DNA of 64,000 nt, from positions 714,681 through 778,680 of the forward strand of contig MHCJ01000003.1 in NCBI GenBank assembly GCA_001816585.1. The letters are read 5' to 3'. Of this stretch, positions 11,792 to 36,417 are shown one piece after another; position 1 is the first letter of the stretch, and every line of letters begins with the position of its first letter. A model generated the notes under the pieces. The model was not told where the DNA came from. It worked only from the letters and a program-made list of their open reading frames with translations, and ran no database searches. This DNA comes from Candidatus Chisholmbacteria bacterium RIFCSPHIGHO2_01_FULL_52_32. Lineage in GTDB: Bacteria; Patescibacteriota; Microgenomatia; UBA1400; Chisholmbacteraceae. Position numbers and translations under genes: made by a program.

Positions 11792-13483
11792 TTGAAACTT
11801 CATATCCTATCTGGTACCTTCCATACGCATATGCGTTCAACTTTACCCCAGCACCAGACCAGTCTGACTGGTCGGGGCGGGGTTTCGCCTCATATAATTG
11901 ATAAGAAGCCACGGGCATCAGCCCGTGGAGGCTTACATATCACCAGTCTTGACTCCATTCGTCCACTGGTGGCCCAGGCCCCCAGTGAAGCAAAACGGAA
12001 GCGCTCGATTAAGTACGTTGATGTTCGAGTTCAAATCACTGAAGGGGTCGGTAGCTGGTCGGAAGACGGGGCCCCAAAAGCATCGAGCCAGGACTGGGGA
12101 TTTTCGTTGGGTGTCCGTGTGATTGCCGCCAAGGGTATTGCCGCTTCCGGGTATTACGGACGTCTTTTAGGTGTTTCCGACTTTTTGCACTTTCCCCAAG
12201 TTCTTTTATCCGCCATTGACGCGGCATCCCAGCGTGCATTGGCAAATTCCCTGCACAAAGAACGTTTCGCACAGTTGATGCCCCTCGGCCAATCGGTTAC
12301 GCCTACGGAGCTTGCCAGAATCGATATTCATCAAGCTATCGTTGAAGCAGTTTTTGCTATTGACCCGAGAAACATCACGCCGGATTTTTTTTCGAATTTT
12401 GTCTGTGAAGCCGGCTTGAGGGCCAAACGTTCTCATCCCTCCATCAAAAAGGTTGAAGTTTCCGCTTCTAGTGTTATTTCCCGTCAGCTCTTTTCTTCCT
12501 CGGAAGGTGCTTTTATTGACCAATCCTCCTGTTCTACCGGTGGTACGGTTTTCGTTTTGGCACAAAACGCTTCCGGGAACAGACCGGTTGATCTCTACCA
12601 CCATACGGGGAATCAACTTGGTTTTGAGGCGCTGTCTTTGGGAAAAAACGCCCACAAAATGACCTTGAGTCAGTTTGCCCGCCAGATAGCCGACGAGGCG
12701 AACACGCTTTCCGAGGCCAAGCCGGCTCCGAGCAAAGATAAACCGGTGGTTGTGGTTCTCGATCCGGATTTGGTGGCTCTGTTTGCCCATGAGATCATCG
12801 GACACCCAGCGGAGCTTGACCGTGCAATCAAGATGGAGACCGGCTATGCCGGTCGTTCGTGGTTTTTCACAGACCTTCAGAAAAGCATGGTCGGGAAAAA
12901 GATCGGCTCTCCGCTTTTGACGGCTTTTTCGGATCCGACCTTGCGCGGGGGATACGGGCACTATCTCTACGATGATGAGGGAACTCCCGCCAAGCGTGTC
13001 TATCACATTAACAAAGGCATCTTCCAAGATTTCTTAAATAGTCGGCAGACTGCGGCGATTGTGGGTGCGGCCCCAAACGGACATTACAAAGCCAATGATG
13101 CTTCCGTCGTTCCCCTCATCCGGATGTCCGTCTCAGCGATTGCTCCGGGAAAAAGCAATCCAGCCTCGATTATTTCCGATGTGGAGCATGGCTACTACTG
13201 CGTCGGTCACCGTATCCCTTCTATCTCGGAATCCCGGGAGAATTTTCAGATCGCCCCCCGACTCATTTACGAAATTCGCCACGGTCGGTTGGGACGGGTT
13301 TTTCGCGACGGGCGGGTGACCGCCAATTCCAAGGATTTCTTCAACTCCATCGATGCCGTCGGATCGGATTTCACCATTTTTCCCATTCCAAACTGCGGCA
13401 AAGGCCAACCCATGCAAGCCAAACAGGTCGGTAACGGCGGCCCGACTATCCGAGCACAAGCAATGATCGCCCGAGGAGTGTGA
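11792..13483 (+). CDS. tldD: TldD-family metallopeptidase; the N-terminus is uncertain and the true start is probably downstream of the track start
   Basis: HEIIGHPAELD is the HExxxH motif and a TldD/PmbA fold is evident. The track start is a TTG and about 60 extra N-terminal aa overlap the hairpin CCACGGGC-ATCA-GCCCGTGG at ~11908-11927. Confidence 0.75.
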   Translation: MKLHILSGTFHTHMRSTLPQHQTSLTGRGGVSPHIIDKKPRASARGGLHITSLDSIRPLVAQAPSEAKRKRSIKYVDVRVQITEGVGSWSEDGAPKASSQDWGFSLGVRVIAAKGIAASGYYGRLLGVSDFLHFPQVLLSAIDAASQRALANSLHKERFAQLMPLGQSVTPTELARIDIHQAIVEAVFAIDPRNITPDFFSNFVCEAGLRAKRSHPSIKKVEVSASSVISRQLFSSSEGAFIDQSSCSTGGTVFVLAQNASGNRPVDLYHHTGNQLGFEALSLGKNAHKMTLSQFARQIADEANTLSEAKPAPSKDKPVVVVLDPDLVALFAHEIIGHPAELDRAIKMETGYAGRSWFFTDLQKSMVGKKIGSPLLTAFSDPTLRGGYGHYLYDDEGTPAKRVYHINKGIFQDFLNSRQTAAIVGAAPNGHYKANDASVVPLIRMSVSAIAPGKSNPASIISDVEHGYYCVGHRIPSISESRENFQIAPRLIYEIRHGRLGRVFRDGRVTANSKDFFNSIDAVGSDFTIFPIPNCGKGQPMQAKQVGNGGPTIRAQAMIARGV

Positions 13484-23158: not shown

Positions 23159-23713
23159 TTATTTTTTCCCGAGTGCAATACGAATGTCGGATGTCTGGTT
23201 TTGATCCGGTTCAACGAGGCCAACGATCCACTGCTGATTCTCAAGAATTTGTTTCACCTCTTGCGCTTCTCTCTCTAGGCCGACCTTATAGACTACCGTG
23301 GTTTTCTCAAGTAATGAGGGGGCAGTGGAGATCGCGCTAACTTGGTATCCTTTCGTTTCAAGTACTTCCGCCAGGCTTGCAGCCGCTCCGGTGATGCCGC
23401 TGGCGTTTTCGATTTCTACTTTCGCTCTTATTTCCGGTGTTTCAGAGCCCTCTTGTTCTAATGTAGCAGAGGGGAAAATTGCTGTCAAATCGCCACTCTG
23501 AGAACTCTCGAGAACATCTGCGGCTTCTTCCAGCAACTTTCGGTTGAGTCTCGGGTTGGCTGCCGAGACAATGCGTTCGTCGATGTCTTTTGACTTAAGG
23601 ATATTTTCCAAGATTATCCTGGCATTCCCTGCCACAAGGAGCAGTAAGCCAACTAAGGCCAGGCCCTTGACCAGAAATTTCGGACTAATCTTTGACAAAT
23701 GATTCGTTAACAT
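23159..23713 (-). CDS. LytR_C-domain-like membrane-anchored protein within the pilus locus
   Basis: N-terminal TM, then VEIENASGITGAAASLAEVLETKGYQV...TTVVY, which resembles the LytR C-terminal domain. The family call is from memory. Confidence 0.4.
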   Translation of the reverse strand: MLTNHLSKISPKFLVKGLALVGLLLLVAGNARIILENILKSKDIDERIVSAANPRLNRKLLEEAADVLESSQSGDLTAIFPSATLEQEGSETPEIRAKVEIENASGITGAAASLAEVLETKGYQVSAISTAPSLLEKTTVVYKVGLEREAQEVKQILENQQWIVGLVEPDQNQTSDIRIALGKK

Positions 23714-24266
23714 AAAGCCTCAAGTTTACTTGAATTGACGTTCCTTCCGAGATACCGCTTGGGCTTTCCAGCCTTGCGGAATCAACGGTAAAAAGGTACG
23801 GAGAATTTTCAAGCCTGGTGAGGGCAGCCATTGCCTGCGGCAGAGATCCTTCGAATGCCAAGGCGAGGGGTAAGAAATTGAAACCTCCTGCATCCTTTAT
23901 CGGGGTATCGCTGACGAAGTTAAAGCTCCTTACCTGGCTTATGTCTTTTAACCCTTCCAGGAATTGGATTACTTCAAGAAGCCGAGATTGATCGGGAAGG
24001 GCCTTCTGAATTTTTTCTGCTTGGGTTTTTGTCGCTTGTAAATCCGCGATGAGTTTTTGCGCGCTTTGCTCCTGGAGTTTTTGAGCCAGGATTTCGCTTC
24101 TTAACACCACGATTGCTTTGGTCCTCTGCGGCAAAAGTATGAGCAGTATCACATCGACGGCGATGAAAAGTCCGTTTAGGAAGAGGATTGCCGGTGTCAT
24201 ATACGAACGGTACCCGCCCCTCTTTCCTGAATCCTCTTTTTTGGACTTGTCTTTTTTCGCAGGCAT
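23685..24266 (-). CDS. pilO: type IV pilus assembly protein PilO-like
   Basis: 193 aa, single TM, coiled coil and a periplasmic domain, in the expected position after pilMN. Confidence 0.6.
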   Translation of the reverse strand: MPAKKDKSKKEDSGKRGGYRSYMTPAILFLNGLFIAVDVILLILLPQRTKAIVVLRSEILAQKLQEQSAQKLIADLQATKTQAEKIQKALPDQSRLLEVIQFLEGLKDISQVRSFNFVSDTPIKDAGGFNFLPLALAFEGSLPQAMAALTRLENSPYLFTVDSARLESPSGISEGTSIQVNLRLYVNESFVKD

Positions 24267-24267
24267 C

Positions 24268-25728
24268 TTAGTTCATTTTTATGTTCATGATAAAGTCGAT
24301 GTTTTCCGCTTGCTCGATGCTTGAGAGCGGCAGGGTTGCCTCGCTGAACATATCTGTTCCCTCTATGTTTTCCCGAAACTTGAGGAGTACCGTACGGGTC
24401 CGGGCTTTTCCTACCAGCTTCAATTTCTTCTGGTTTTCGTCAAGAGTAAGACTTACGACGGCTACTCCTTCCGGAATGTTCGGCAGGAGCACGGCGAGAC
24501 GGGTTTGGGGGAATGTCCGACCGCTTCCAACCTCGACAATTGTCCTTCCATTCCGGTTAAGGCGCTCTGTTTCCTTTATTGCTTCCCCTGTCTCCTGAGG
24601 AAGCGGGGCCAAGGTTAGTTTCTCGGACTCAAGCTTTGCTGCGACACCTCCGAGGAAGACCTGCGTTCCCAGTGCCGCTATGGCAACGGTCGCGGTTACT
24701 CCGGTTGCAATGGCGAAAAGATATTTATTTATCCATTGGTTTTGTTTTACATCAAACGCTTCCTGAAGCTTGGGGGGAAGGAGATTGATCGTGCGGACGT
24801 TTTTGGGCTCTTCTATTTCTTTTTGCGCAAGCGATGATGCCACCGCAAAGCTTAATTCTCTCCCTTTCGGTAAGTTTTCAATCGGGAGCGGACACGGTTT
24901 TACCTCTCGCCCGGATCCTTTCCCTATTTCATCGATAGCTTCTTGGGATGCTCCTTCTCCGCAAACGTAGATCGTCTGGACTTTTTCTTCATCTTGATGT
25001 TTTGTTTCGTAAAAGGCGAGCATTTTTTGGATTGTCTGGATAAGGTACGGCAATCCCGCTTCTCCCTCCTCCCCTGCCAGAGAGACAATTGAACTTGCTT
25101 CAATGAGTTTGCCTTTCGTCAAGGTCAGGACAGCGTGCTCCCGTTGTAACTCGAGAATAACGGCCCGTTTCCCTTCCTTTTCAATCAGACGGACCAATGA
25201 GAGGGCAGTGGTTTCGAATGCAACCGGAGTCAAGTGAGCGGCCTCAAGGGCTGCGGTATATCCGTCAATGATCTCTTTCGCTACCGCAATTAAAAGGATG
25301 TTGATATGGTTTTTCTCCTCGCTTATGATCTTCCAATCCATATACACCTGGTCTGCAGGAACGGGGAGGTAGGTTTCCGCTTCCCACTCCACCGCCTCCG
25401 TCAGTTCATCTATCCGTAATAGCGGCATGGAGAGAATCTTCGTGTAGCATTTGTTCTCCGGGATACCGACGACGACTTCACGCTTATCGATTTTGGCTGC
25501 CTGGAACAATCTGAGAAGGGATTGGGAGAGTTTTTCCCCGTTTTTCACCTCTCCCCCTGTGATGACGGAAGGCTCGAGTCTTTCTTCAGCCAAGCGGGAA
25601 GCCCTCTTCCCCGTTTTATCTAAAAGGAGAATTTGAATTTTTTCTTCTGAGATAATGAGGCTTGGGTAGGTTTTGTGCTTAAGAGCAATCATGGCAGGCA
25701 AAGTTTCCCTTTTGCAAGGGTTCTTCAT
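24268..25728 (-). CDS. pilM: PilM (actin-like ATPase) fused to a PilN-like TM/coiled-coil C-terminal region
   Basis: The N-terminal ~340 aa are a PilM/FtsA-like fold. The C-terminal ~140 aa hold a TM helix (LFAIATGVTATVAIAALGTQVFLGGV) plus a periplasmic segment typical of PilN. Confidence 0.7.
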   Translation of the reverse strand: MKNPCKRETLPAMIALKHKTYPSLIISEEKIQILLLDKTGKRASRLAEERLEPSVITGGEVKNGEKLSQSLLRLFQAAKIDKREVVVGIPENKCYTKILSMPLLRIDELTEAVEWEAETYLPVPADQVYMDWKIISEEKNHINILLIAVAKEIIDGYTAALEAAHLTPVAFETTALSLVRLIEKEGKRAVILELQREHAVLTLTKGKLIEASSIVSLAGEEGEAGLPYLIQTIQKMLAFYETKHQDEEKVQTIYVCGEGASQEAIDEIGKGSGREVKPCPLPIENLPKGRELSFAVASSLAQKEIEEPKNVRTINLLPPKLQEAFDVKQNQWINKYLFAIATGVTATVAIAALGTQVFLGGVAAKLESEKLTLAPLPQETGEAIKETERLNRNGRTIVEVGSGRTFPQTRLAVLLPNIPEGVAVVSLTLDENQKKLKLVGKARTRTVLLKFRENIEGTDMFSEATLPLSSIEQAENIDFIMNIKMN

Positions 25729-25782
25729 TAATTATAGCGTCTTGGGACCGCGTGTATACCCCATTGCGGGAAGCGAGATTTA

Positions 25783-25812
25783 TGAATTATGAATCATGAA
25801 TTATGAATCACG
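25783..25812 (+). repeat. tandem 14-mer (ATGAATTATGAATC, two copies plus a partial) in the pilC-pilM intergenic region
   Basis: tgaattatgaatcatgaattatgaatcacg, read directly from the sequence. Confidence 0.7.
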
Positions 25813-25832
25813 GGAAGTTAGGGAAAACAAGA

Positions 25833-27059
25833 CTAGCGGGCGGTGGGTTGCTGGGGTTGAAGGTTTCCAATCACGCTATAGATCGGCCCGATGATTGAGA
25901 TGACCATGGCTCCGACGGCGACGCCGATGATAAGCATGAGGACCGGTTCAAGGATCGAGGTAAAGTTCTTGAGGGAAAAATCCACTTCTTGTTCGTAGAA
26001 ATCTGCCAGTTCTGACAGGACTACTTCGAGGCTTCCGCTTTTTTCTCCAGCGCGGATGGATTGGGTCATCAGGGCCGGGAAAATGCCTTCTCCGGTTGCG
26101 ATTGCATCGGAAAGCGAACTGCCCTTTTTTATTTCCTCTTCAAAAGTTTTCCCGAGCTTTACAAATTTTGTTTGTGTCAAGGCCGCAACAGACACCTTGA
26201 CGGAATCCAAGATGGGCACACCGCTTTTTAAAAGGGTACTTAAGGTACGACTGAACCGAGCCATATCGAGTTGATCGAAGAGCTTTCCTAAAACAGGAAG
26301 TTTACTGGCAATCTTCATCAAGAAAACCCTGGTTTTTGGCAGACGAACGAGAAGGATCAGTCCTACCACTGCCGTTACGGAGGCGGCGATTACCCACAGG
26401 TAGTTTTTCCCAAGAAAGCTTGAAATCGACAAGAGGATTCGCGTTGCCAGGGGGAGTTTGATATTGAGCTTGAGGAATACGGAGCTAATCCTCGGCAACA
26501 CGAACGTCACCATGAGTACCCCGACACCGATCATCGCTGAAATAATCACCGCTGGGTAAAGCAAGGCTCCTTTGACCTTCTGAGACAGTTCGTAGTTCTT
26601 CATGAGCTGGCTTGCAAGGTATTCGAAGGACTGCTCAAGCGTTCCCGATTCCTCACCGGCACGGGTTAGGGTGAGAAAGACAACGTCGAAGACTTCTGGA
26701 TAGCGGGCAAAAACCGTTGAAAGTTTCTGTCCCCTCTGGATGCTGTACTCCAAATCCTGAAGGATTCGGTGCATTTTCCTGTTTGAGGTTTCCTTGGCGA
26801 TGATATCAACCGCTTCTGAGAGGGGAAGACCGGCCTTCATCATCGTCGAAAGGTATCTGCAGAAGACCGCTTTCTCAATCACCGGGACTGCCTGCAGCCG
26901 TTCCCGAAACGACTGGGCTCGCTGAATTTCACGCACCGTTAATACTTGTATGCCTTGGTCTCTTAAGATTGCTCCGGCTTCTTTGCGGGACGGTGCTTCT
27001 ATGGCGTCCTGAAGGATTGTTCCTTGCTTGTCTTTGGCTTTATAGGAAAAGATGGCCAT
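25833..27059 (-). CDS. pilC: type IV pilus platform protein PilC (GspF family)
   Basis: 408 aa with two T2SSF repeats and three TM segments. Confidence 0.85.
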   Translation of the reverse strand: MAIFSYKAKDKQGTILQDAIEAPSRKEAGAILRDQGIQVLTVREIQRAQSFRERLQAVPVIEKAVFCRYLSTMMKAGLPLSEAVDIIAKETSNRKMHRILQDLEYSIQRGQKLSTVFARYPEVFDVVFLTLTRAGEESGTLEQSFEYLASQLMKNYELSQKVKGALLYPAVIISAMIGVGVLMVTFVLPRISSVFLKLNIKLPLATRILLSISSFLGKNYLWVIAASVTAVVGLILLVRLPKTRVFLMKIASKLPVLGKLFDQLDMARFSRTLSTLLKSGVPILDSVKVSVAALTQTKFVKLGKTFEEEIKKGSSLSDAIATGEGIFPALMTQSIRAGEKSGSLEVVLSELADFYEQEVDFSLKNFTSILEPVLMLIIGVAVGAMVISIIGPIYSVIGNLQPQQPTAR

Positions 27060-27061
27060 GG

Positions 27062-27160
27062 GAATAAAAAGTTAAAAGTTAAGAGTTAAAAGTCTAAAGT
27101 TATTAAATACGAATCAAATAGTTAAAAGTGAAAAGTGAAAAGTAAGATATCAACGTCTCC
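27062..27160 (+). repeat. A-rich octamer array (GTTAAAAGT, TAAGAGT, GTGAAAAGT units), pilB-pilC intergenic
   Basis: aaaaagttaaaagttaagagttaaaagtctaaagttattaaatacgaatcaaatagttaaaagtgaaaagtgaaaagtaag. Confidence 0.75.
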
Positions 27161-27167
27161 TTTGCGT

Positions 27168-28847
27168 TTATTCCCGCACGGCGCGCCGGATCTCTTCGAT
27201 GGTGGTAATACCGGCTGCGACTTTGTTCAGGCCATCCTGAAGCATGGTCACCATTCCTTGTTTGAGGGCTGACTGTTTGATCTCTTCTGCGGAGGGACGC
27301 TTGGTTGTTTTCTCGCGGATCTCATCATTCACCTCAAAGACCTCAAAGATGCCCACCCTCGCTTTGTATCCGGAACCACCGCATTCATCGCAGCCTTTCC
27401 CTCTGAAAAATTTCGTTTTTCTCATTGCGACTCCGAATTGTGCGACCAGAAGCTTCATTTCGGTTTCGTTTGGTTCGTACTCAGACACACATGACTGACA
27501 AATCCGGCGAACCAGGCGCTGCGCGATGATCATAATGATGGTTGATGCTACAAGGTACCCCTCAACGCCCATGTCAAGGAGACGCGGAATAGCACCCGGA
27601 GCATCGTTGGTATGCAAGGTTGAAAGCACGAGGTGACCGGTCAGGGCAGCATGGATGGCGATGTTGGCCGTTTCTTCATCACGGATCTCGCCAACCATGA
27701 TAATGTTTGGGTCGTGGCGAATGATCGACCGCAAGCCTTTCGCAAACGTCAGTCCTGCCTTCGGATTAATTTGTGTTTGATTGACACGCCGAACACTGTA
27801 TTCAACCGGATCCTCGACGGTAACGATGTTTACGGCGGTGGTGTTTAAGATCGTTAAAACACTGTAGAGCGTGGTCGTTTTTCCCGAGCCGGTGGGGCCG
27901 GTGACAAGGATCATTCCGTGCGGCTGGTGGATCGCCCGCTGCACCACCTCGAGTCCTTCCTTGGCCAGGCCGAGTTCTTCGAGGCTTAACGGCCGTTCCG
28001 TTTCCGGGAGGAGTCTTAGGACGATGTTTTCTCCGAAATACGTGGGCATGACGGAAACCCTGAGGGCAATAATTTCTTCTTGTGCCTGAAACTTGAACCG
28101 TCCATCTTGAGGAATTCGGTGCTCATCAAGCTTGAGGGAAGAGAGAATCTTGATTCTCGCGATAATTGCGGGCTGTATCTCTTTTGGCAGAATGATGATG
28201 TCGCGCAAGATGCCGTCTACGCGAAACCGTATCAGGAGCGCTTCCTGCATTGTTTCGATGTGGATGTCGGATGCCCTTTCCGCCATGGCATACTCAAGGA
28301 TCGTATTGAAGATTTTAATGACCGGGAGTTCCTCGGCTGCCCTAACGATATCCTTTCCCAGTTTTGCGGCTTTCCTGATGTTATCCTGGATGATTTTCTC
28401 GAACTCCAACTTAATGTTCTTTTTGTATTGTCCAAGAGCTCTGGTGAGATCGGCCGGAGTAATGTAATACGGGATAATCTTGAGTCCCGTTTTTCTTTTC
28501 GTGAATTCCATTGCCTCAAAGTCCGAGGGGTTTTCCATACCTAAATGGAGTTCATTCCCCTTCTTTTCAAACGGTATTATCCTGTAGGAGTGGGCGGTCT
28601 TTTCGGGAACAAGTTCCAACACTTGGGAAGGAATTACTTTGTTGTGAATGGCTAGGAAGGGAACGCTCAACTCCCGAGCAATTTGTTTCCCTAAGAGATC
28701 CTCGGTGATCAGACCACGAAAAATAAGGATGTCAATGACATCCTTATCAAAATCTTTTGCGTCCTTCTCTGCGGCCGTGAATTCTTGATCAGTGACAAAA
28801 CCTGAATCTACGAGGATTTTCTTTAAAGTAGCTTGGTTAAGCTCCAT
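27168..28847 (-). CDS. pilB: type IV pilus assembly ATPase PilB (GspE family)
   Basis: Walker A GPTGSGKTTTLYS, Asp/His boxes, a C-terminal tetracysteine and N-terminal T2SSE_N repeats, 559 aa. Confidence 0.9.
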   Translation of the reverse strand: MELNQATLKKILVDSGFVTDQEFTAAEKDAKDFDKDVIDILIFRGLITEDLLGKQIARELSVPFLAIHNKVIPSQVLELVPEKTAHSYRIIPFEKKGNELHLGMENPSDFEAMEFTKRKTGLKIIPYYITPADLTRALGQYKKNIKLEFEKIIQDNIRKAAKLGKDIVRAAEELPVIKIFNTILEYAMAERASDIHIETMQEALLIRFRVDGILRDIIILPKEIQPAIIARIKILSSLKLDEHRIPQDGRFKFQAQEEIIALRVSVMPTYFGENIVLRLLPETERPLSLEELGLAKEGLEVVQRAIHQPHGMILVTGPTGSGKTTTLYSVLTILNTTAVNIVTVEDPVEYSVRRVNQTQINPKAGLTFAKGLRSIIRHDPNIIMVGEIRDEETANIAIHAALTGHLVLSTLHTNDAPGAIPRLLDMGVEGYLVASTIIMIIAQRLVRRICQSCVSEYEPNETEMKLLVAQFGVAMRKTKFFRGKGCDECGGSGYKARVGIFEVFEVNDEIREKTTKRPSAEEIKQSALKQGMVTMLQDGLNKVAAGITTIEEIRRAVRE

Positions 28848-29555: not shown

Positions 29556-30305
29556 TTACTCAATATCCTTGCGGAAGCGTTCGTACCAATCCGTCAGGAA
29601 ACGCGAAACAAGGTCTTTTGCCCCAAGTCCTAATGCAAGACCAAAGCCTAAAGCAAGCATGGCGATTACCCCTGTAAAGATCGTGTTGATGAACGCTTGG
29701 GCAATCTTTAACTCCGAAATTGCGGCGAGTGCCGTAAACACCACAATTGTGTAGCTGGCTATCTTCCCAAGCAGTCTGCCCGCTTTGACGTCAACGCTTC
29801 CGACTGCCCCTTTCACCAGGCTTTCAACAACTCCTGAAATCAGCACCCCGATTGTCAGAATGAGTGCTGCTGAAATGACATTGGGGATATACCCTAAAAT
29901 GCTTTCCAAAACTTGAGAAACGGTGGAAAGTCCAAGAATATTGACCGAAGCGATGAAAAAGACCAAGATGATCAACCATTTGATAATGGCTCCGATCGTT
30001 TCCTCGATCCTCACCGTAATGTCTGCTTTTTTGAGAAATTGTTGGATCCCCGTGTCTTTGATGAGGTTTGACAGCCTGAGCGAATCAAGGATTTTGATTA
30101 TTATCGCCCTTGCCCATCCGGCCACAATCCACCCTACAAGAAAAACGGCAATTGCGGCGATGAGGTTCGGGAAAAACGATAACAGCCTTGTCGTTACATC
30201 CGTCCAGGCTGCAACCAGGGTTCCGCTATAGGTTTGGTTTACGCTCGTTGGCATGTTGTGTTTTTCACCTCCGTCTCTTTGGGCGCGGTGTTCATCATAA
30301 GCCAA
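29556..30305 (-). CDS. membrane protein with conserved TM-helix repeats (MscS-associated TM_helix type)
   Basis: 249 aa with repeated amphipathic/TM segments (LIAAIAVFLVGWIVAGWARAII ... IKWLIILVFFIASVNILGLS ...). Confidence 0.4.
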   Translation of the reverse strand: MAYDEHRAQRDGGEKHNMPTSVNQTYSGTLVAAWTDVTTRLLSFFPNLIAAIAVFLVGWIVAGWARAIIIKILDSLRLSNLIKDTGIQQFLKKADITVRIEETIGAIIKWLIILVFFIASVNILGLSTVSQVLESILGYIPNVISAALILTIGVLISGVVESLVKGAVGSVDVKAGRLLGKIASYTIVVFTALAAISELKIAQAFINTIFTGVIAMLALGFGLALGLGAKDLVSRFLTDWYERFRKDIE

Positions 30306-30568
30306 TCGATCATCTCAGGGATCTTGTTTTTACGACTTGATCTCTATTATCGGATCATCTGAATGATTTGTCAATGAATTTTGCTTTATTCCATAGGTAT
30401 TTTATAATATCCACAGTGAACATCGGCGTACACGGTCATAATGACCTCGGCTGCTTTGCGTGGAAATGATGTTACGGATGAACAAGTTTTTAGTATTCCT
30501 GAACGGGCTAAGGAATTTCAGCCTACACTCACTGATCTTGTAATTCTTTAACTTATTGAATAGGTACT

Positions 30569-31519
30569 ATGGGAGAAAAGCCATCTCATTCATCTGAACA
30601 GTTCCCAGAAACGGATCACGAAATTTTATTCGAAGAAGTTCGTCCTCCTTTGTCATTTCATATGGCAAACCCCGCGCACCGTGAAGAAGTGGCCTTTCGT
30701 GTTGCTCAAGGAGAACCGATAGGAATCTTTGTGGTTCAGTATGGGGTCGTCTTCTCCGCAGAAGATGAGGCCACGACCAACAAGCTTCTTACCCAAGTTA
30801 AGGGTCCTCATCGCACCTCCCCCATTCCGATTTGGATCCAACATCCACGAGAAATCGTTGCTGCGGATATCGTGGATTTTACGAGAATTCATCCCGATTT
30901 ACACTATCTTTTTCAGGATCCATCCGAACTTGCCGATAGAACACAAGGTCTCTGCATGGTTAAATTTCCTATCAAGCCAGACTCAGCGCTTAACGGGACT
31001 CCACTCCATTCCCTCGTTTCCGACGAAGACGAAACTGGCAAATGGCTTCTTTTTTTCCATGCGGGACGGGCTTTCCCTCATGCCCAGAAATTCATTGAGA
31101 GGATCTATGATGGCGGAATTCAACTGGTTGGGATAAGCTCCCTCAATGTGCATGGAGGAGTATCGCCCACATCCCTTGAAGAGGCCATAGCGTTCTGTGA
31201 AGTGAGGAATGTTTCTTCTTTTATTGTTGATCGTGGTTCCCGGTTCACCGAAAGAAGGGGTTCCTATCCCATCATTCAAATAACGCATGAGGGGGCTATG
31301 CTTCGGCGTCTTGGAAATGTGCCGGTTCGATATCTTGAGGCGGCGGGGTGGAGGATAACCGGTGATGATAGTGCCGTTCCTCAGCCAACTATTCCTCCTT
31401 CCGAAAGGAGAGACTTTGAAACCGAGATGCGCACCTTCTCACTGATCTGGGAAGAATTCCCTGAGCTTTCAAACCTCATTATCCAGACCGACCACTCCTC
31501 TTCCCAACTGAAGAAATGA
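30569..31519 (+). CDS. hypothetical protein with weak YrdC/Sua5-like features
   Basis: 316 aa. GIFVVQYGVVFSAEDEATTNKLLTQVKGPHRTSPIPIWI and GISSLNVHGGVSPTSLEEAI loosely parallel the YrdC motifs (KxR..P, STSANxSG). The assignment is tentative. Confidence 0.25.
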   Translation: MGEKPSHSSEQFPETDHEILFEEVRPPLSFHMANPAHREEVAFRVAQGEPIGIFVVQYGVVFSAEDEATTNKLLTQVKGPHRTSPIPIWIQHPREIVAADIVDFTRIHPDLHYLFQDPSELADRTQGLCMVKFPIKPDSALNGTPLHSLVSDEDETGKWLLFFHAGRAFPHAQKFIERIYDGGIQLVGISSLNVHGGVSPTSLEEAIAFCEVRNVSSFIVDRGSRFTERRGSYPIIQITHEGAMLRRLGNVPVRYLEAAGWRITGDDSAVPQPTIPPSERRDFETEMRTFSLIWEEFPELSNLIIQTDHSSSQLKK

Positions 31520-31561: not shown

Positions 31562-31966
31562 CTATTCACTCAAAACAGCTGCCGCCGCTTTTGCGCATTC
31601 CACATCTTGAGAAATATCTGGAGAGCCTCCGACACCAATTGCTCCGATCAGGGTTTTCCCTTGTAAAATTGGTATACCTCCGGCCATAGTCGTTAATTCT
31701 CCACCAAATAGTGTGTTAATCCCAAAGTACGGCATTCCTTCTTTTGCGAACTGCGCTAATCCTTCGCTTGGTACTGCAAGGGCGGCTGATGTCCATGCTT
31801 TTGTCTGGGCAATCCGAGGGCTTATGGGTAGTGCTCCATCCATTCGACTCGCAGCGATGGTTGATCCGTGGTTGTCCACGATAACCGTACTGACTGCGAT
31901 TCCTAGGGATTCTGCTTTCTTCTCGGATGACTGAAGGGCCTTTTTTGCCTGGCTTAACGTCATCAT
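31562..31966 (-). CDS. GlcG/HbpS-family (DUF336) heme-binding-like protein
   Basis: TIAASRMDGALPISPRIAQTKAWTSAA...GGIPI..GKTLIGAIGVGGSPDISQDVECA is typical of DUF336. Confidence 0.65.
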   Translation of the reverse strand: MMTLSQAKKALQSSEKKAESLGIAVSTVIVDNHGSTIAASRMDGALPISPRIAQTKAWTSAALAVPSEGLAQFAKEGMPYFGINTLFGGELTTMAGGIPILQGKTLIGAIGVGGSPDISQDVECAKAAAAVLSE

Positions 31967-32093: not shown

Positions 32094-34025
32094 TTAAGCG
32101 ATCAAAGTTGCCAGATGCTTTCCTTGGACAATATATTGTTTATTGTCGTACAAGTCTTCAAGTGTCGGTATCCTGCCCAATTTTGCGGTTAGCGCAGCAA
32201 CTGGGGCGGAGGAAAGATATACTTCTGCTTCCCGATCACCCATTCTTCCTGGGTAATTCCGGTTGTTTGTCGATAATACCCTCTCACCTTTATTCACCCT
32301 TGCTCCTAAACCAAGACAAGGGCCGCATGATCGCTCTCTGGCGATTCTTGCCCCTGATCTAGTTAAAGAGGATAAGATGCCGATTCCTTGAGCATGTTTC
32401 CTGGTGAGGGGATCAGCCAAATGAATATCTATCGGAATTCGGGTCCGTTCTCCCTGCAGAACGCTCGCGAGGATTGCAATATCCTGAAGCGTTGAACCTG
32501 CGCAGGAATTGAATATCAACCGATCAAACGTCATCTGATCGCGCAATTCTGCAAGAGGAGTGACCTCCTTGTGTGAATGTGGCCCAACAACGGCAGGTTC
32601 GGTCTCTGCAAGATTCACACGGATCTTGGCGGCATACTCGGCTCCTGGATCCGGCTGCAGATGTTCAAAGATACGCCCAATTTCTTGGTCAGAAATATCT
32701 TCAAGATTTTTCCCGTAGGCTCTTAAGTAATCTATGACTTGTGGATTTGGCGTTGTGCCGATAGATCCTATTCCACCATACTCCGTGACGGCATTAAAAT
32801 GTTTGGCGGCTTCACTGTAGGGTAAACGCGCAAATCCCTCTCCCCCAATCTCAAACATCATTCCATTTCCCATTGACCCACGAAAGTACCGATGAACTAA
32901 TTGCCAAATTGTGTCCTTCGTGTCACAGATCTCTGGTAAATCTCCGATAAACTCGAGTTTGATCGTTGGTGGTAGCGTGTATGGAATTAAGCCTTCATTG
33001 GCAATGGCACAAGCTGCTGCGGTATATCCGATAGGAATAACCAATGCGCCTGGGATAATTCCCAACTCTGGCGAATGCGAATCCATTCCTACAATCACCG
33101 ATCCTACCGGCAACCTTAGGGGAAGGACTTTGTTGTAGATCCCATCATCCCCTCTAAAGGCTTCTGAGTATTTTTCCCAATACCGTTTGACGGTTTCGAT
33201 AGCCCTAATGGCATTTGGGTCGTCCGAACCGCTGAAATGGTCTGCGAACAGCCAGAAATGATTTGTAGGGAAAGAGATCTTTCCATTGAAGTATCTGTTG
33301 AGTACCCTTTCCATGTGGGCTATAAAAACGTCATATCCGACTAACTCTTGGGTTTGTATAACCATCGAGTCGCCAGCCCTATATCGGTCTTCCCCAGAAG
33401 CTCTTTTGACTTTTCCTGCTACCGTCCCACCAATTACGGAGCACACTTTTTCCACCGCAGTTTGAGGAAATGGTGCACGCTCTGGAATTTCATCTTGAGG
33501 AAATGCTTCTTCACTTTCGTAAATTGCTCGTATGTATCTCGGCAATCCTCCGTAGTGAAGAATTCTCCTCTGAACAAAAGATAGCCCTCTTGTGAATTCT
33601 TCAAGCTGTGGTTCCTTTCCTTCCATAATTTTCTGAAGAAGAAAAAAATCCGTAGAAGGAACTACACCCTGATTAATCAAATTTTCAAAGAATATCGGTC
33701 CAAAAGACTCTGCAAATACTGCGCCGAACCCGTTTAATCGAACCGCTTCTGCTGCGTTTTCTCTTGAGGAACCGATCCCGAAGTTGCGGCCTCCCACTAA
33801 AATTCGGGACCGATCTTCTTGCCGATTACCATAATCCCAATTTGGGAAAATCCTCAGGAGTGCCTGCCGTAATCCTTCCTCCTCCAGAATTAAAGCATCT
33901 TTCCCCGTAATAAGGTGGTCGGTTGTGATGTCCGGGAGAAGATCTTCTGGGAGCCTATTGCCGCCTCTTCTCTCTGGGTGTTCAATTGCTGATTTGGATA
34001 AAAAAACGATTCCTTCAGGACTCAT
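32094..34025 (-). CDS. aconitase-family dehydratase with circularly permuted domain order (LeuD-like swivel domain at the N-terminus, LeuC-like catalytic domains after)
   Basis: The N-terminus has GGRNFGIGSSRENAAEAV...SFGPIFFENLINQGVVP (small-subunit motif). Then come GMDSHS, NSCAGSTLQDIAIL, SCGPCLGLG and STNNRNYPGRMG, the large-subunit Fe-S ligand motifs. 643 aa. Confidence 0.7.
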   Translation of the reverse strand: MSPEGIVFLSKSAIEHPERRGGNRLPEDLLPDITTDHLITGKDALILEEEGLRQALLRIFPNWDYGNRQEDRSRILVGGRNFGIGSSRENAAEAVRLNGFGAVFAESFGPIFFENLINQGVVPSTDFFLLQKIMEGKEPQLEEFTRGLSFVQRRILHYGGLPRYIRAIYESEEAFPQDEIPERAPFPQTAVEKVCSVIGGTVAGKVKRASGEDRYRAGDSMVIQTQELVGYDVFIAHMERVLNRYFNGKISFPTNHFWLFADHFSGSDDPNAIRAIETVKRYWEKYSEAFRGDDGIYNKVLPLRLPVGSVIVGMDSHSPELGIIPGALVIPIGYTAAACAIANEGLIPYTLPPTIKLEFIGDLPEICDTKDTIWQLVHRYFRGSMGNGMMFEIGGEGFARLPYSEAAKHFNAVTEYGGIGSIGTTPNPQVIDYLRAYGKNLEDISDQEIGRIFEHLQPDPGAEYAAKIRVNLAETEPAVVGPHSHKEVTPLAELRDQMTFDRLIFNSCAGSTLQDIAILASVLQGERTRIPIDIHLADPLTRKHAQGIGILSSLTRSGARIARERSCGPCLGLGARVNKGERVLSTNNRNYPGRMGDREAEVYLSSAPVAALTAKLGRIPTLEDLYDNKQYIVQGKHLATLIA

Positions 34026-34231: not shown

Positions 34232-35551
34232 ATGACATATCAGACTACTCCTCAATCCAAAAAAACCATTGAAGCTCTTTGGCGTTTGGAAAAAATCATC
34301 CTCAATTCTCTTGACTTTAATCAGGTTGTCAGAGAAATTGTCGATAGCGTTCTTCTGGAATTAGGATATTTGCAGTTGGGTTATGAAATCGTTGTGCTTT
34401 GTTTGATTGATCCGAAGGAACATGTTCTGCGGCGGATTTCTATCTCGCAAACTTCAAAGGCCCAGCAGGCTCTTGCGGAAAGCCCAGTACCATTCTCTGA
34501 TATTGTTATCCCTCTTTCCTACACAAAGAATTTGCTTATTCAGTCAGTCAAACAAAAATCCCCTCAAACAACTACGTCTTGGGCAGATGTCCTCACCCCG
34601 GCTCTGCCGCCTGATGAATGCATACGCATTCAAGCGCTTGTCGGTATTAAGGCAAGTTTGATTCTGCCTGTTCTTTCCCGAAATAAAGCGATTGGGGCTC
34701 TCATTTTTAGCATGAGTAAACCCTTATCGCGTGTTACTCCAGATGAGCGGGATCTCATACGAAGCTTCTCGGACATCGTCGGTCTCGCTGTCCAAAATGC
34801 TTCCCTCTACTCTCAGACAGAACGGGCAAATTTGAAACTCAAACGCGCAAACCGCAAACTCGTTCACCTAGACAAACTTAAGGATGAATTTGTGTTCATT
34901 GCCACCCATGAGCTGAAAAATCCAGTCACTGCGATGCGCGGATATCTCTCAATGGTCGAGGGCGGTGTCTATGGTTCAACTCCTCCAAAACTCAAGAAAG
35001 TTCTGGAACAACTTAATGCGAGTAATCAACAGCTCGTCCAGCTCGTCAACGACCTCCTGCAAATTGCACGCGCGGAAGCCAAGACCATTAAAATCAAGAC
35101 GCAGCCAACTGACCTTTCTCAATCCGTTACTGAAACCCTGGAATCGCTGAAGCCTTTAGCTGATCAGAAAAAGCTGGCGCTTGTTCACGACAGTACAATC
35201 AACATAAAAGTGATGGCTGATGACTCCCGACTGAAAGAAATCCTTAACAATCTCGTCAGCAATGCCATTAAATACTCCAACCGCGGGACGATCACCGTTT
35301 CGCATCGTCTCGAGGATTCCACCGTTACCACCCAAGTTTCCGATCGGGGCGTTGGTATTTCTGAAGCTGATCAAAAACGGCTGTTTACGCGCTTCTTCCG
35401 ATCTGAAGAAAAAACCGTCCGTGATATCCCGGGAACCGGCCTGGGACTATTCATCGTGAAACAGATTGTGGAGAAAATGGGTGGCAAGATCTGGTTTGAG
35501 TCTCAATTGGGCAAGGGTTCGACCTTCAGCTTTTCTCTTCCTTCCGCTTAA
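34232..35551 (+). CDS. sensor histidine kinase with GAF domain
   Basis: GAF-like N-terminus, HisKA (HELKNPVTAMRGYLSM) and HATPase_c (GTGLGLFIVKQIVEKMGG), 439 aa, no TM. Confidence 0.8.
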   Translation: MTYQTTPQSKKTIEALWRLEKIILNSLDFNQVVREIVDSVLLELGYLQLGYEIVVLCLIDPKEHVLRRISISQTSKAQQALAESPVPFSDIVIPLSYTKNLLIQSVKQKSPQTTTSWADVLTPALPPDECIRIQALVGIKASLILPVLSRNKAIGALIFSMSKPLSRVTPDERDLIRSFSDIVGLAVQNASLYSQTERANLKLKRANRKLVHLDKLKDEFVFIATHELKNPVTAMRGYLSMVEGGVYGSTPPKLKKVLEQLNASNQQLVQLVNDLLQIARAEAKTIKIKTQPTDLSQSVTETLESLKPLADQKKLALVHDSTINIKVMADDSRLKEILNNLVSNAIKYSNRGTITVSHRLEDSTVTTQVSDRGVGISEADQKRLFTRFFRSEEKTVRDIPGTGLGLFIVKQIVEKMGGKIWFESQLGKGSTFSFSLPSA

Positions 35552-36057: not shown

Positions 36058-36410
36058 CCAAGGAATCGAGGATGATGGGGTCCGACGTTAAGTCGGACTC
36101 AGGAAAGTCCAGACAGCGGAAAGCAAGGTGTTTCCCGCAAGGGGATGTCTCCCGACCTATGTCGGGGGGCCAGTTCGAGCAACAGAGACGAGTCCCCGTG
36201 AAGAATAAAACACTTCATGGGGGGTGAAACGGGCAATCCTCCCTGCTGCAACCTCCGACTGTCCCGCCTTTCGAGTTTAACTCGGAAACAAGATGCTTTC
36301 TCGATACCCCGGTTTTTATCGGGGGGCGGGACGAAGTTCGAGGGCAAAGAGAGATATCATCAGTCCGCCAACCGGCGGATCACAGAATCTGGCTTATCAT
36401 TCCTTGGTAT
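36058..36410 (+). ncRNA. rnpB: RNase P RNA, bacterial type A
   Basis: P4 strands AGGAAAGTCCAGAC and CACAGAATCTGGCTTATC, a P3 hairpin GGTCCGAC-GTTAA-GTCGGACT, AGCAACAGAGA, GGGTGAAACGGG and a P1 pair CCAAGGAAT/ATTCCTTGG. A TGGTATATT extended -10 lies ~8 nt upstream. Confidence 0.8.
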
Positions 36411-36417
36411 TGACTGG

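Follow-up and report, generated by a model that had tools for sequence, protein, structure and literature searches.

A small-first aconitase-family protein in a rare clade of Microgenomates bacteria and the fossil of a neighboring synthase gene

Candidatus Chisholmbacteria bacterium RIFCSPHIGHO2_01_FULL_52_32 encodes an aconitase-family protein in which a LeuD-like swivel region (domain 4) stands ahead of LeuC/HacA-like catalytic domains (domains 1 to 3) in a single chain. We analyzed this protein, hereafter the permuted protein, together with its genomic surroundings, a stretch of 64,000 nucleotides of contig MHCJ01000003.1 (the window). The small-to-large domain order is real, far beyond chance. 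The protein belongs to a known superfamily and has a known, though under-appreciated, architecture; it is strongly diverged and is neither AcnB, AcnX, nor ordinary LeuCD. In what follows, L-numbers designate genomic loci and P-numbers the proteins compared, and the clade comprises six lineages, including that of the window.

Domain order and active site

The domain order emerges from three kinds of match. In Pfam, Aconitase_C (PF00694) covers residues 69-123 of the 643-residue protein (E 1.5e-15; 58.2 bits against a gathering score of 22.8), and Aconitase (PF00330) covers residues ~200-620 (E 5.6e-37; 128.2 bits against 28.7). The small-subunit models of NCBIfam match residues 32-169 and its large-subunit models residues 201-620. 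Among PDB sequences, those of LeuD/HacB align with residues 32-172 and those of LeuC/HacA and mitochondrial aconitase (mAcn) with residues 196-620. These matches agree with an earlier note on this DNA, made from the sequence alone, which had placed the swivel domain ahead of a LeuC-like catalytic region with three cluster cysteines; all the motifs it quoted (GGRNFGIGSSRENAAEAV, SFGPIFFEN, NSCAGS, SCGPCLG, and STNNRNYPGRMG) are present in the translated open reading frame (ORF).

The same uninterrupted ORF occurs in the five further clade lineages, at 46-59% identity and always with 632-644 residues. Because these lineages share a continuous ORF, an assembly artefact or a frameshift joining separate leuD and leuC genes, which the earlier note had named as an alternative, is ruled out.

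Structure prediction also gave a permuted fold, as the earlier note had anticipated. The AlphaFold2 model is confident (mean predicted local distance difference test score [pLDDT], 89.1; predicted template modeling score [pTM], 0.89), and its top full-length Foldseek match is Escherichia coli AcnB (1l5j), whose domain order is 4-1-2-3, with a query-normalized template modeling (TM) score of 0.75 over 719 columns. The large domain superposes best on M. jannaschii HacA (4kp2; TM, 0.91; root mean square deviation, 2.4 A), and the four-domain fold matches AcnB, HacA, isopropylmalate (IPM) isomerase, and mAcn with a Foldseek probability of 1.00. The linker, residues 176-200, is well modeled (means of 10-residue blocks, 89-91); the low-confidence loop, residues 204-211, lies just past it.

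Residues S86, R88, D262, H263, D315, S316, H317, E415, C508, C567, C570, R589, and R594 are invariant across 24 small-first proteins. Their mAcn equivalents are S642 and R644 (S86 and R88), D100-H101 (D262-H263), D165-S166-H167 (D315-S316-H317), E262 (E415), C358, C421, and C424 (C508, C567, and C570), and R447 and R452 (R589 and R594). The permuted protein has the catalytic set of the superfamily, namely, the Ser of the GSSRE motif, the Asp-His general-acid pair, the DSH triad, Glu262, and Arg447, Arg452, and Arg644, the carboxylate-binding arginines among them, and it retains the three cysteine ligands of the [4Fe-4S] cluster. Since the catalytic and ligand residues are invariant, the default reading is that the protein would be a catalytically competent [4Fe-4S] hydro-lyase.

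Other positions near the cluster have changed. In mAcn, His147 belongs with Asp165 and His167 to the Fe4 hydrogen-bond network (PMC8184944). The clade invariantly has Asn298 at this position ('GxYN[KQ]V'), whereas all other small-first proteins examined have His ('GICH'). Glu320, also clade-invariant, replaces mAcn Asn170 and, like Asn298, adjoins the catalytic iron. Further clade-specific changes are 'GYDVF' in the substrate loop of domain 1, 'NSCAGS' in place of 'GSCT[GN]G', and 'GPHSHK' in place of 'PGDPxN'. The changes next to Fe4 and the remodeled domain-1 loop point to a specificity or a half-reaction that has diverged.

In IPM isomerases and homoaconitases, substrate preference is set by a five-residue recognition region of the small subunit (PMC7308503). 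Reading the corresponding residues of reference enzymes directly from their PDB sequences, we found that the clade-invariant Leu45 aligns with an Arg of M. jannaschii HacB ('PGPYLRTTDP', 2pkp), a Val of M. jannaschii IPM isomerase ('PARYLVYTKP', 3vba), and a Leu of P. horikoshii LeuD (1v7l). As Leu45 sits at the homoaconitase Arg position, a substrate with a third carboxylate (citrate or homocitrate) is disfavored, and the variable substituent of the substrate is probably uncharged rather than a carboxylate. The earlier note had pointed to the specificity residues of this loop, which are IPM isomerase-like at Leu45, and had left the substrate open among several hydroxy-acids. That openness stands, except that homoaconitate and, by extension, citrate have become disfavored candidates.

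Relationship to known aconitase-family enzymes

The superfamily shows three domain arrangements, and 4-linker-1-2-3 is listed for AcnB and type I AcnX (PMC8184944). In an exhaustive HMMER search, LeuD+LeuC-like fusions in the small-first order made up about 50 more clusters at 50% identity (e.g., P0007-P0011 and P0019-P0038). The earlier note was right about the order in AcnB and wrong that AcnB alone has the swivel domain first, since type I AcnX and these un-named clusters share it. The small-first relatives align collinearly with residues 25-625 in a single stretch at 27-33% identity, and local hidden Markov models (HMMs) of the domains confirmed their order. The family is without a curated name because none of ten representatives reaches an NCBIfam cut-off (the best scores 364 against 385 for the generic PRK00402.1).

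These un-named fusions are the top-scoring relatives outside the clade and have a similar linker (z = 6.2 versus shuffles). Unlike the clade, they retain the 'GICH' His, 'GSCT[GN]G', and 'PGDPxN', and they score 212-364 bits with PRK00402.1, compared with 178 for the permuted protein. P0009 and P0011 are followed by an Iso_dh (beta-decarboxylating dehydrogenase) gene, which is the classical LeuCD-LeuB arrangement; two other small-first relatives are not followed by one, and none of the fusions examined has the neighborhood of synthase, partner, and HbpS-like genes described below. Two peculiarities of small-first proteins are worth recording. P0151 (988 residues), which is also small-first (small domain, residues 387-534; large domain, residues 568-987), carries an extra N terminus of ~380 residues that recalls the additional N-terminal domain of AcnB. 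At L178, a gene for a 423-residue protein without a Pfam match (392-1663, + strand) lies 36 bp upstream of the gene for the distant small-first protein P0008 and may be an unrecognized pathway partner in that branch.

The permuted protein shares the 4-1-2-3 order with AcnB of E. coli and, by homology, would share its [4Fe-4S] hydro-lyase chemistry. However, AcnB has 865 residues with an N-terminal HEAT-like domain and retains His147, while the permuted protein has 643 residues, with ~30 before the swivel domain and its TTD motif, and Asn in place of His147; the large domains are 25% identical. No Pfam match corresponding to the HEAT-like domain 5 was found N-terminal of the swivel domain. Membership in AcnB was rejected on the absence of that domain and on the scores with TIGR00117 (78.5 against a cut-off of 1287.2) and NF006690 (114.4 against 782).

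The nearest solved sequences and domain structures are those of M. jannaschii LeuCD (MJ0499/MJ1277) and HacAB (MJ1003/MJ1271) (4kp1, 4kp2, 3vba, and 2pkp); the small domain matches HacB 2pkp with an E value of 2e-23, and the large domain resembles 4kp2 as given above. The archaeal enzymes consist of two separate subunits, encoded large then small, keep the 'GICH' His, and work with LeuA/AksA and LeuB/AksF as partners. The permuted protein falls far under the cut-offs of the archaeal-type subfamilies (178 against 385 and 156 against 410), and Leu45 gives it an IPM isomerase-like hydrophobic residue in the recognition loop. LeuCD membership by equivalog model was rejected (TIGR00170, 55 against 560; TIGR00171, 35 against 116; TIGR02083, 119 against 611; TIGR02084, 44 against 246), and with these scores, far below cut-off, orthology to an ordinary fused LeuCD, which the earlier note had named as the unremarkable outcome, was not found. 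Nor is there a leuA and leuB association: the relatives have no more than a LeuA-family gene, itself deeply divergent and reduced to a fossil here, and no Iso_dh gene was found near the clade loci or in the window. Homoaconitase was rejected on Leu45 at the 2pkp Arg position and on the scores with TIGR01343 (148 against 385.7) and NF040615 (113 against 550).

Type I AcnX is a single chain with the order 4-linker-1-2-3, as here, and acts as a dehydratase only (PMC8184944). It differs in belonging to other Pfam families, in its [2Fe-2S] cluster, and in having Cys at the His147 position, where the permuted protein has Asn. We rejected AcnX membership, as the only Pfam matches are Aconitase and Aconitase_C and the Foldseek TM score is 0.45 at 12% identity. 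The 'putative aconitate hydratase' proteins of the PRK07229/TIGR01342 type have ~650 residues, like the permuted protein, and provide the top NCBIfam model for its catalytic region (192 bits), but their order is the opposite, large to small, and 192 bits compares with a cut-off of 612.

All 200 neighbor-joining bootstraps of the large domain recover the clade as monophyletic. This domain is 25-27% identical to that of every other group: other small-first proteins, large-to-small fusions, stand-alone LeuC/HacA, and AcnB. Its placement is far less stable. It joins AcnB in 60 of 200 replicates, both being long branches at 25% identity, and the P0019 group in 48 of 200; across analyses, P0019-type small-first proteins accompany it in 24-36% of replicates, and the nesting seen in a first tree is not robust. 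A single fusion event common to the clade and the other small-first proteins is nonetheless suggested by the fact that these are its top-scoring relatives, by the C-terminal tail shared with the P0019 group, and by the similarity of the linker. We read this evidence as suggestive and not as proof.

The clade is very rare. A search of 5.8 billion proteins yielded six clusters, and an HMMER search of 1.84 billion proteins a single 50%-identity representative plus fragments. The clade was met in one of 185,579 GTDB species genomes and on two contigs from 241 million metagenome records; L015, L098, and L099 are the only clade loci that these two scans gave. A second homolog search with a 24-sequence profile, in which candidate selection was word-limited, returned no new homologs. 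The 90%-identity cluster of the permuted protein includes GenBank entries OGY18805.1 and OGY19825.1 ('hypothetical protein, Candidatus Chisholmbacteria bacterium'), and a second clade member is annotated 'Microgenomates group bacterium'; the lineage belongs to the candidate phyla radiation (CPR; Patescibacteria). Scans with the clade profile also brought up candidate small-first fusions in Rokubacteria, Methylomirabilota, Binatia, and Thaumarchaeota, which the local HMMs rejected: the loci from Rokubacteria and other such groups are large-to-small fusions, and those from Nitrososphaeria and most metagenome matches are separate LeuC and LeuD genes. A literature search found nothing on the permuted protein, on small-first LeuDC fusions, or on Chisholmbacteria metabolism involving the permuted protein.

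Gene neighborhood and the synthase fossil

Within two genes of the permuted gene, every other clade lineage examined has a divergent HMGL-like gene of the isopropylmalate/citramalate/homocitrate synthase family. In L001-L003 and L015, this synthase gene immediately precedes the permuted gene on the same strand (with an 8-bp gap in L003), and in L004 and L005 it lies beyond or upstream of the partner gene described below. Its product keeps the LRDGxQ motif, the HGHNDLG metal site, and SGIH, and its best PDB matches are solved synthases for homocitrate, isopropylmalate, and citramalate, all at about the same distance from it. An aminotransferase gene stands between the synthase and permuted genes in L001, and a glutamate dehydrogenase gene is also near that locus.

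The window is collinear with L004 (AI-2E transporter, 69% identical; MscS-like channel, 73%), except that it is without the synthase gene and a 102-residue gene between the channel and partner genes, where it has a 263-bp spacer. In frame +2 of this spacer, positions 30410-30454 encode STVNIGVHGHNDLGC, which aligns with the L005 synthase at its HxH metal motif (score, 64, against a best of 38 in 300 shuffles; z = 12), and another frame then holds a remnant of the synthase C-terminal tail. L097, whose partner protein is 70% identical to that of the window, has an intact 408-residue synthase 5 bp upstream of the partner gene. By blastn against this locus, window positions 30300-30426 match the synthase promoter region, 30415-30453 match the HxH codons, and 30451-30600 match the last ~113 nucleotides of the synthase gene plus the start of the partner gene (81% identity; E 6e-35). 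This pattern implies that the gene lost about 680 and 420 bp in two internal deletions. Judging from these alignments, a synthase gene was once present in the window lineage and was lost recently. The earlier note had reported no leuA, leuB, or TCA gene adjacent to the permuted gene; this is true of intact genes throughout the 64-kb window, which holds the LeuA-family fossil in place of the gene that is intact in relatives. The note had overlooked the replaced active-site residues (Asn298 and Glu320) and the conserved partner gene.

Strain L096 (99.5% identical) carries the same fossil, and its partner and HbpS-like genes are intact and identical to those of the window. The two strains differ by 9 substitutions, too few for an informative ratio of nonsynonymous to synonymous substitution rates (dN/dS). 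At positions otherwise invariant in the clade, the window copy of the permuted gene has 13 changes out of 181 (7.2%). As this falls inside the leave-one-out range of the other members (3.4-13%), the gene gives no sign of decay.

The 102-residue ORF deleted from the window along with the synthase gene matches no family clearly (DUF2062 weakly, E 0.0096) and forms part of the gene set in L002 (12862-13170), L003 (12905-13213), and L004 (7929-8237).

The partner gene, which encodes a member of a family of ~300-residue proteins, occurs at every clade locus and shares an operon with the synthase gene in L097, L004, and L005. Among 5.8 billion proteins, the family is represented by just 3 clusters. 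Its resemblance to YrdC/Sua5 is faint: Pfam Sua5_yciO_yrdC matches the L003 ortholog only (27.1 bits; gathering score, 25.1), the partner profile finds the YrdC-family structure 1jcu among PDB sequences (E 0.0024), and hhalign against E. coli TsaC/YciO gives a collinear but weak alignment (probability, 4%). The structure model, built on a three-row alignment, has a pLDDT of 36. The YrdC-like label is accordingly tentative. In L001, the partner gene (12477-12950, - strand) encodes only 157 residues, which align with the central part of the ~300-residue orthologs, and may be truncated or mis-called.

The DUF336 heme-binding-like gene that the earlier note had seen downstream of the permuted gene is real (Table 1). 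This HbpS-like gene, whose ATG at 31966 is preceded by a GGAGG Shine-Dalgarno sequence, follows the permuted gene in three of the six clade lineages, including the window; the window protein, which lacks a signal peptide, shares 64% identity with its L001 counterpart. A histidine kinase gene that diverges from the permuted gene adjoins the gene set in all six lineages, and the window kinase is 64-66% identical to those of L002 and L003; we treat it as context only. Promoter and terminator scans gave nothing above shuffled expectation, and no intact leuA, leuB, or TCA gene was found in the window.

In L001 (13089-16248), L002 (15134-18355), and L003 (13310-16421), the permuted gene is followed 1-4 kb downstream by a cassette of 7TM_transglut, ATPgrasp_ST, and RimK-type ATP-grasp genes (with DUF3541 or MATCAP) that is absent from the window. 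The cassette may owe its position to inherited synteny, or it may be tied functionally to a product that is a carboxylate or an amino acid.

Table 1. Coordinates of the permuted gene, its parts, and neighboring genes in the window
Feature	Position	Strand	Remarks
Permuted aconitase-family gene	32094..34025	-	Complete ORF; 643 residues; single chain; domain order 4-linker-1-2-3
Swivel region (LeuD-like, domain 4)	33501..33944	-	Residues 28-175; from HMM envelope, PDB small-subunit alignments, and invariant columns
TTD motif	within swivel region	-	Holds D36
Substrate-recognition loop residue Leu45	33891-33893	-	Clade-invariant; inside swivel region
GSSRE motif (S86/S87/R88)	33762-33770	-	Inside swivel region
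Inter-domain linker	33426..33500	-	Residues 176-200, PQDEIPERAPFPQTAVEK; from alignment of small-first proteins
Catalytic LeuC/HacA-like domains 1-3	32160..33425	-	Residues 201-622; from PDB alignments and mAcn numbering
Y297-N298	33132-33137	-	mAcn His147 replaced by Asn
D315-S316-H317 and E320	33066-33083	-	mAcn Asn170 replaced by Glu at E320
Cluster ligand C508	32502-32504	-	
Cluster ligands C567 and C570	32316-32327	-	
Further key residues of catalytic region			D262-H263; N411/E415; N588-R589; R594
C-terminal helical tail and stop codon	32094..32159	-	Residues 623-643; common to clade and P0019-type small-first proteins
HbpS-like/GlcG (DUF336) gene	31562..31966	-	134 residues; Pfam PF03928, E 4.6e-30; downstream of permuted gene, same strand
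Partner gene (~300-residue family)	30569..31519	+	316 residues; convergent with permuted gene; in all clade loci
Deletion fossil of LeuA/homocitrate synthase-family (HMGL-like) gene	30410..30563	+	Directly upstream of partner gene
GAF-HisKA-HATPase histidine kinase gene	34232..35551	+	From Pfam; divergent from permuted gene
PilB/MshE-like ATPase gene	27168-28847	-	Pfam label from identical L096 gene
PilC/T2SSF-like membrane protein gene	25833-27059	-	Pfam label from identical L096 gene
PilM/N-like protein gene	24268-25728	-	486 residues; Pfam label from identical L096 gene
PilO-like protein gene	within 23685-28847	-	193 residues; Pfam label from identical L096 gene

Proposed function and other features of the window

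We consider it somewhat probable that the permuted protein is a single-chain [4Fe-4S] hydro-lyase that acts on a non-tricarboxylate 2-substituted malate provided by the clade synthase and that the window copy is orphaned or works on an acquired substrate. A linker of ~25 residues joins the LeuD-type swivel domain to the N terminus of the LeuC/HacA-type catalytic domains. By analogy with aconitase-family chemistry, the hydroxyl and a carboxylate of a 2-hydroxy-dicarboxylate would bind the labile fourth iron, Ser86 would abstract a proton, and the Asp262-His263 pair would protonate the leaving hydroxyl; the resulting ene-acid would then either flip and be rehydrated (isomerase) or be released (dehydratase). 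Going by genomic context, the substrate may be a 2-substituted malate with an uncharged substituent, the product of the neighboring LeuA/homocitrate synthase-like Claisen enzyme. Because the synthase gene of the window is a fossil while the hydro-lyase, partner, and HbpS-like genes are intact, the enzyme in this genome may work on an acquired substrate or may have been orphaned only recently.

Several observations speak against this reading. The replacement of His147 by Asn alters the surroundings of the catalytic iron, which means that activity is not to be taken for granted, and the recognition loop outside Leu45 is poorly conserved within the clade. The synthase is represented at the window locus by the fossil only, and in the relatives it scores far below every NCBIfam equivalog cut-off (e.g., 140 against 517). 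Since no Iso_dh gene lies within 10 kb of any clade locus, a complete elongation cycle of the LeuA-LeuCD-LeuB type is not encoded locally. Finally, our literature search found no experimental data for any small-first LeuDC-type protein.

The permuted protein might also be one part of a Microgenomates pathway module without oxidative decarboxylation, composed of a divergent acetyl-CoA-dependent 2-oxoacid condensing enzyme, the hydro-lyase, and the YrdC-like protein, with the window genome feeding the later steps from a compound of its host or environment; we regard this extension as rather unlikely. The metabolite made or processed would be of the 2-substituted maleate/malate type. A related and, in our view, unlikely explanation is a three-enzyme module restricted to Microgenomates, in which an alkylmalate-type synthase is followed by a hydro-lyase working only as a dehydratase, as AcnD and AcnX do, and by a partner that activates or modifies the unsaturated or amino-acid product. 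Such a module would account for the presence of the partner gene in all clade loci and its operonic position next to the synthase gene (5-bp gap in L097), for the lack of a nearby Iso_dh gene, and for the altered residues around Fe4; the extreme rarity of the partner family, its weak YrdC/Sua5 signals, and the aminotransferase gene between synthase and hydro-lyase in L001 would fit as well. Yet the YrdC assignment and the partner model are both weak, the partner gene is convergent with the hydro-lyase gene rather than co-transcribed with it, and the residues of the full isomerase cycle are all retained. Moreover, some of the co-localization may be synteny that these six related genomes inherited.

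CPR genomes undergo reductive evolution, and with the synthase gene already reduced to a fossil, the permuted gene of the window could be a functionless relic heading for loss. We find this quite doubtful, given that the ORF is intact with all catalytic and clade-invariant residues in place, that its rate of change at conserved positions is ordinary for the clade, that the partner and HbpS-like genes are intact and identical in a second strain, and that the old promoter region upstream of the fossil has been kept.

A true aconitase, converting citrate to isocitrate and coupled to an HMGL-family enzyme of the Re-citrate synthase type to feed 2-oxoglutarate and glutamate synthesis, is very unlikely. 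The top NCBIfam match is indeed an 'aconitate hydratase' model (PRK07229), the glutamate dehydrogenase and aminotransferase genes near L001 would suit such a route, and Re-citrate synthase reportedly belongs to the isopropylmalate synthase/homocitrate synthase family. Against this stand the large shortfall from the PRK07229 cut-off, the replaced His147, the lack of an isocitrate dehydrogenase gene nearby, the invariant Leu in place of a cationic residue at the recognition position, and the lack of a conserved loop Arg that could replace mAcn Arg580.

We think it highly improbable that the protein is the ordinary IPM isomerase of leucine biosynthesis fused in reverse, even though its recognition loop is hydrophobic, relatives have an adjacent LeuA-family gene, and the Joint Genome Institute (JGI) labels P0004 a '3-isopropylmalate/(R)-2-methylmalate dehydratase large subunit'. 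The LeuC and LeuD scores and the active-site substitutions argue otherwise, as do the synthase, which scores 123 against 599 with leuA_bact and has no LeuA regulatory domain, and the absence of leuB and ilv genes from the window and from the vicinity of every clade locus. In addition, CPR bacteria generally lack amino-acid biosynthesis, and here the synthase has been lost and the isomerase retained. Most improbable of all is a mainly non-catalytic iron or redox sensor, comparable to apo-IRP1 or apo-AcnB and acting with the GAF kinase, the response regulator, and the HbpS-like protein: a kinase gene adjoins in six of six lineages, the permuted gene persists without the synthase, and Streptomyces has an HbpS-like protein that signals to a sensor kinase, but a pure sensor would not need the fully conserved catalytic set, the HbpS-like gene is present in three of six lineages only and encodes no signal peptide, and we found no evidence of a functional link to the kinase.

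Enzyme recruitment has a textbook example in the aconitase superfamily, to which these results add a LeuCD/HacAB-like lineage with the 4-1-2-3 order of AcnB in about 50 database clusters and, inside it, a very rare CPR clade with a substitution in the Fe4 hydrogen-bond network. Biosynthesis in CPR bacteria is regarded as minimal, and a conserved set of synthase, hydro-lyase, and partner that loses its first enzyme offers a testable handle on which small-molecule chemistry they keep and which they outsource. Should the enzyme prove to be a plain alkylmalate isomerase, the gain would be a modest improvement in annotation. We regard the permuted protein as a good candidate for CPR enzymology and not as a new kind of system.

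Two further features of the window deserve mention. In the ~600-bp spacer between the response regulator and AI-2E transporter genes lies a divergent bacterial type-A RNase P RNA gene (36058-36411, + strand), a full-length match to Rfam RF00010 (E 4e-24). A default Rfam scan is silent on it because its 78.9 bits fall under the gathering score of 100; at gathering scores, the 64-kb window contains no tRNA, rRNA, or other Rfam family. Sub-threshold RNAs elsewhere in this CPR genome may be missed too. Blocks of 27-28 nucleotides in this spacer are 96-100% identical to the L004 spacer, and the flanking proteins are only ~69% identical. Just downstream of the permuted locus, a type IV pilus-type cluster (23685-28847, - strand) encodes the Pil-like proteins listed in Table 1.

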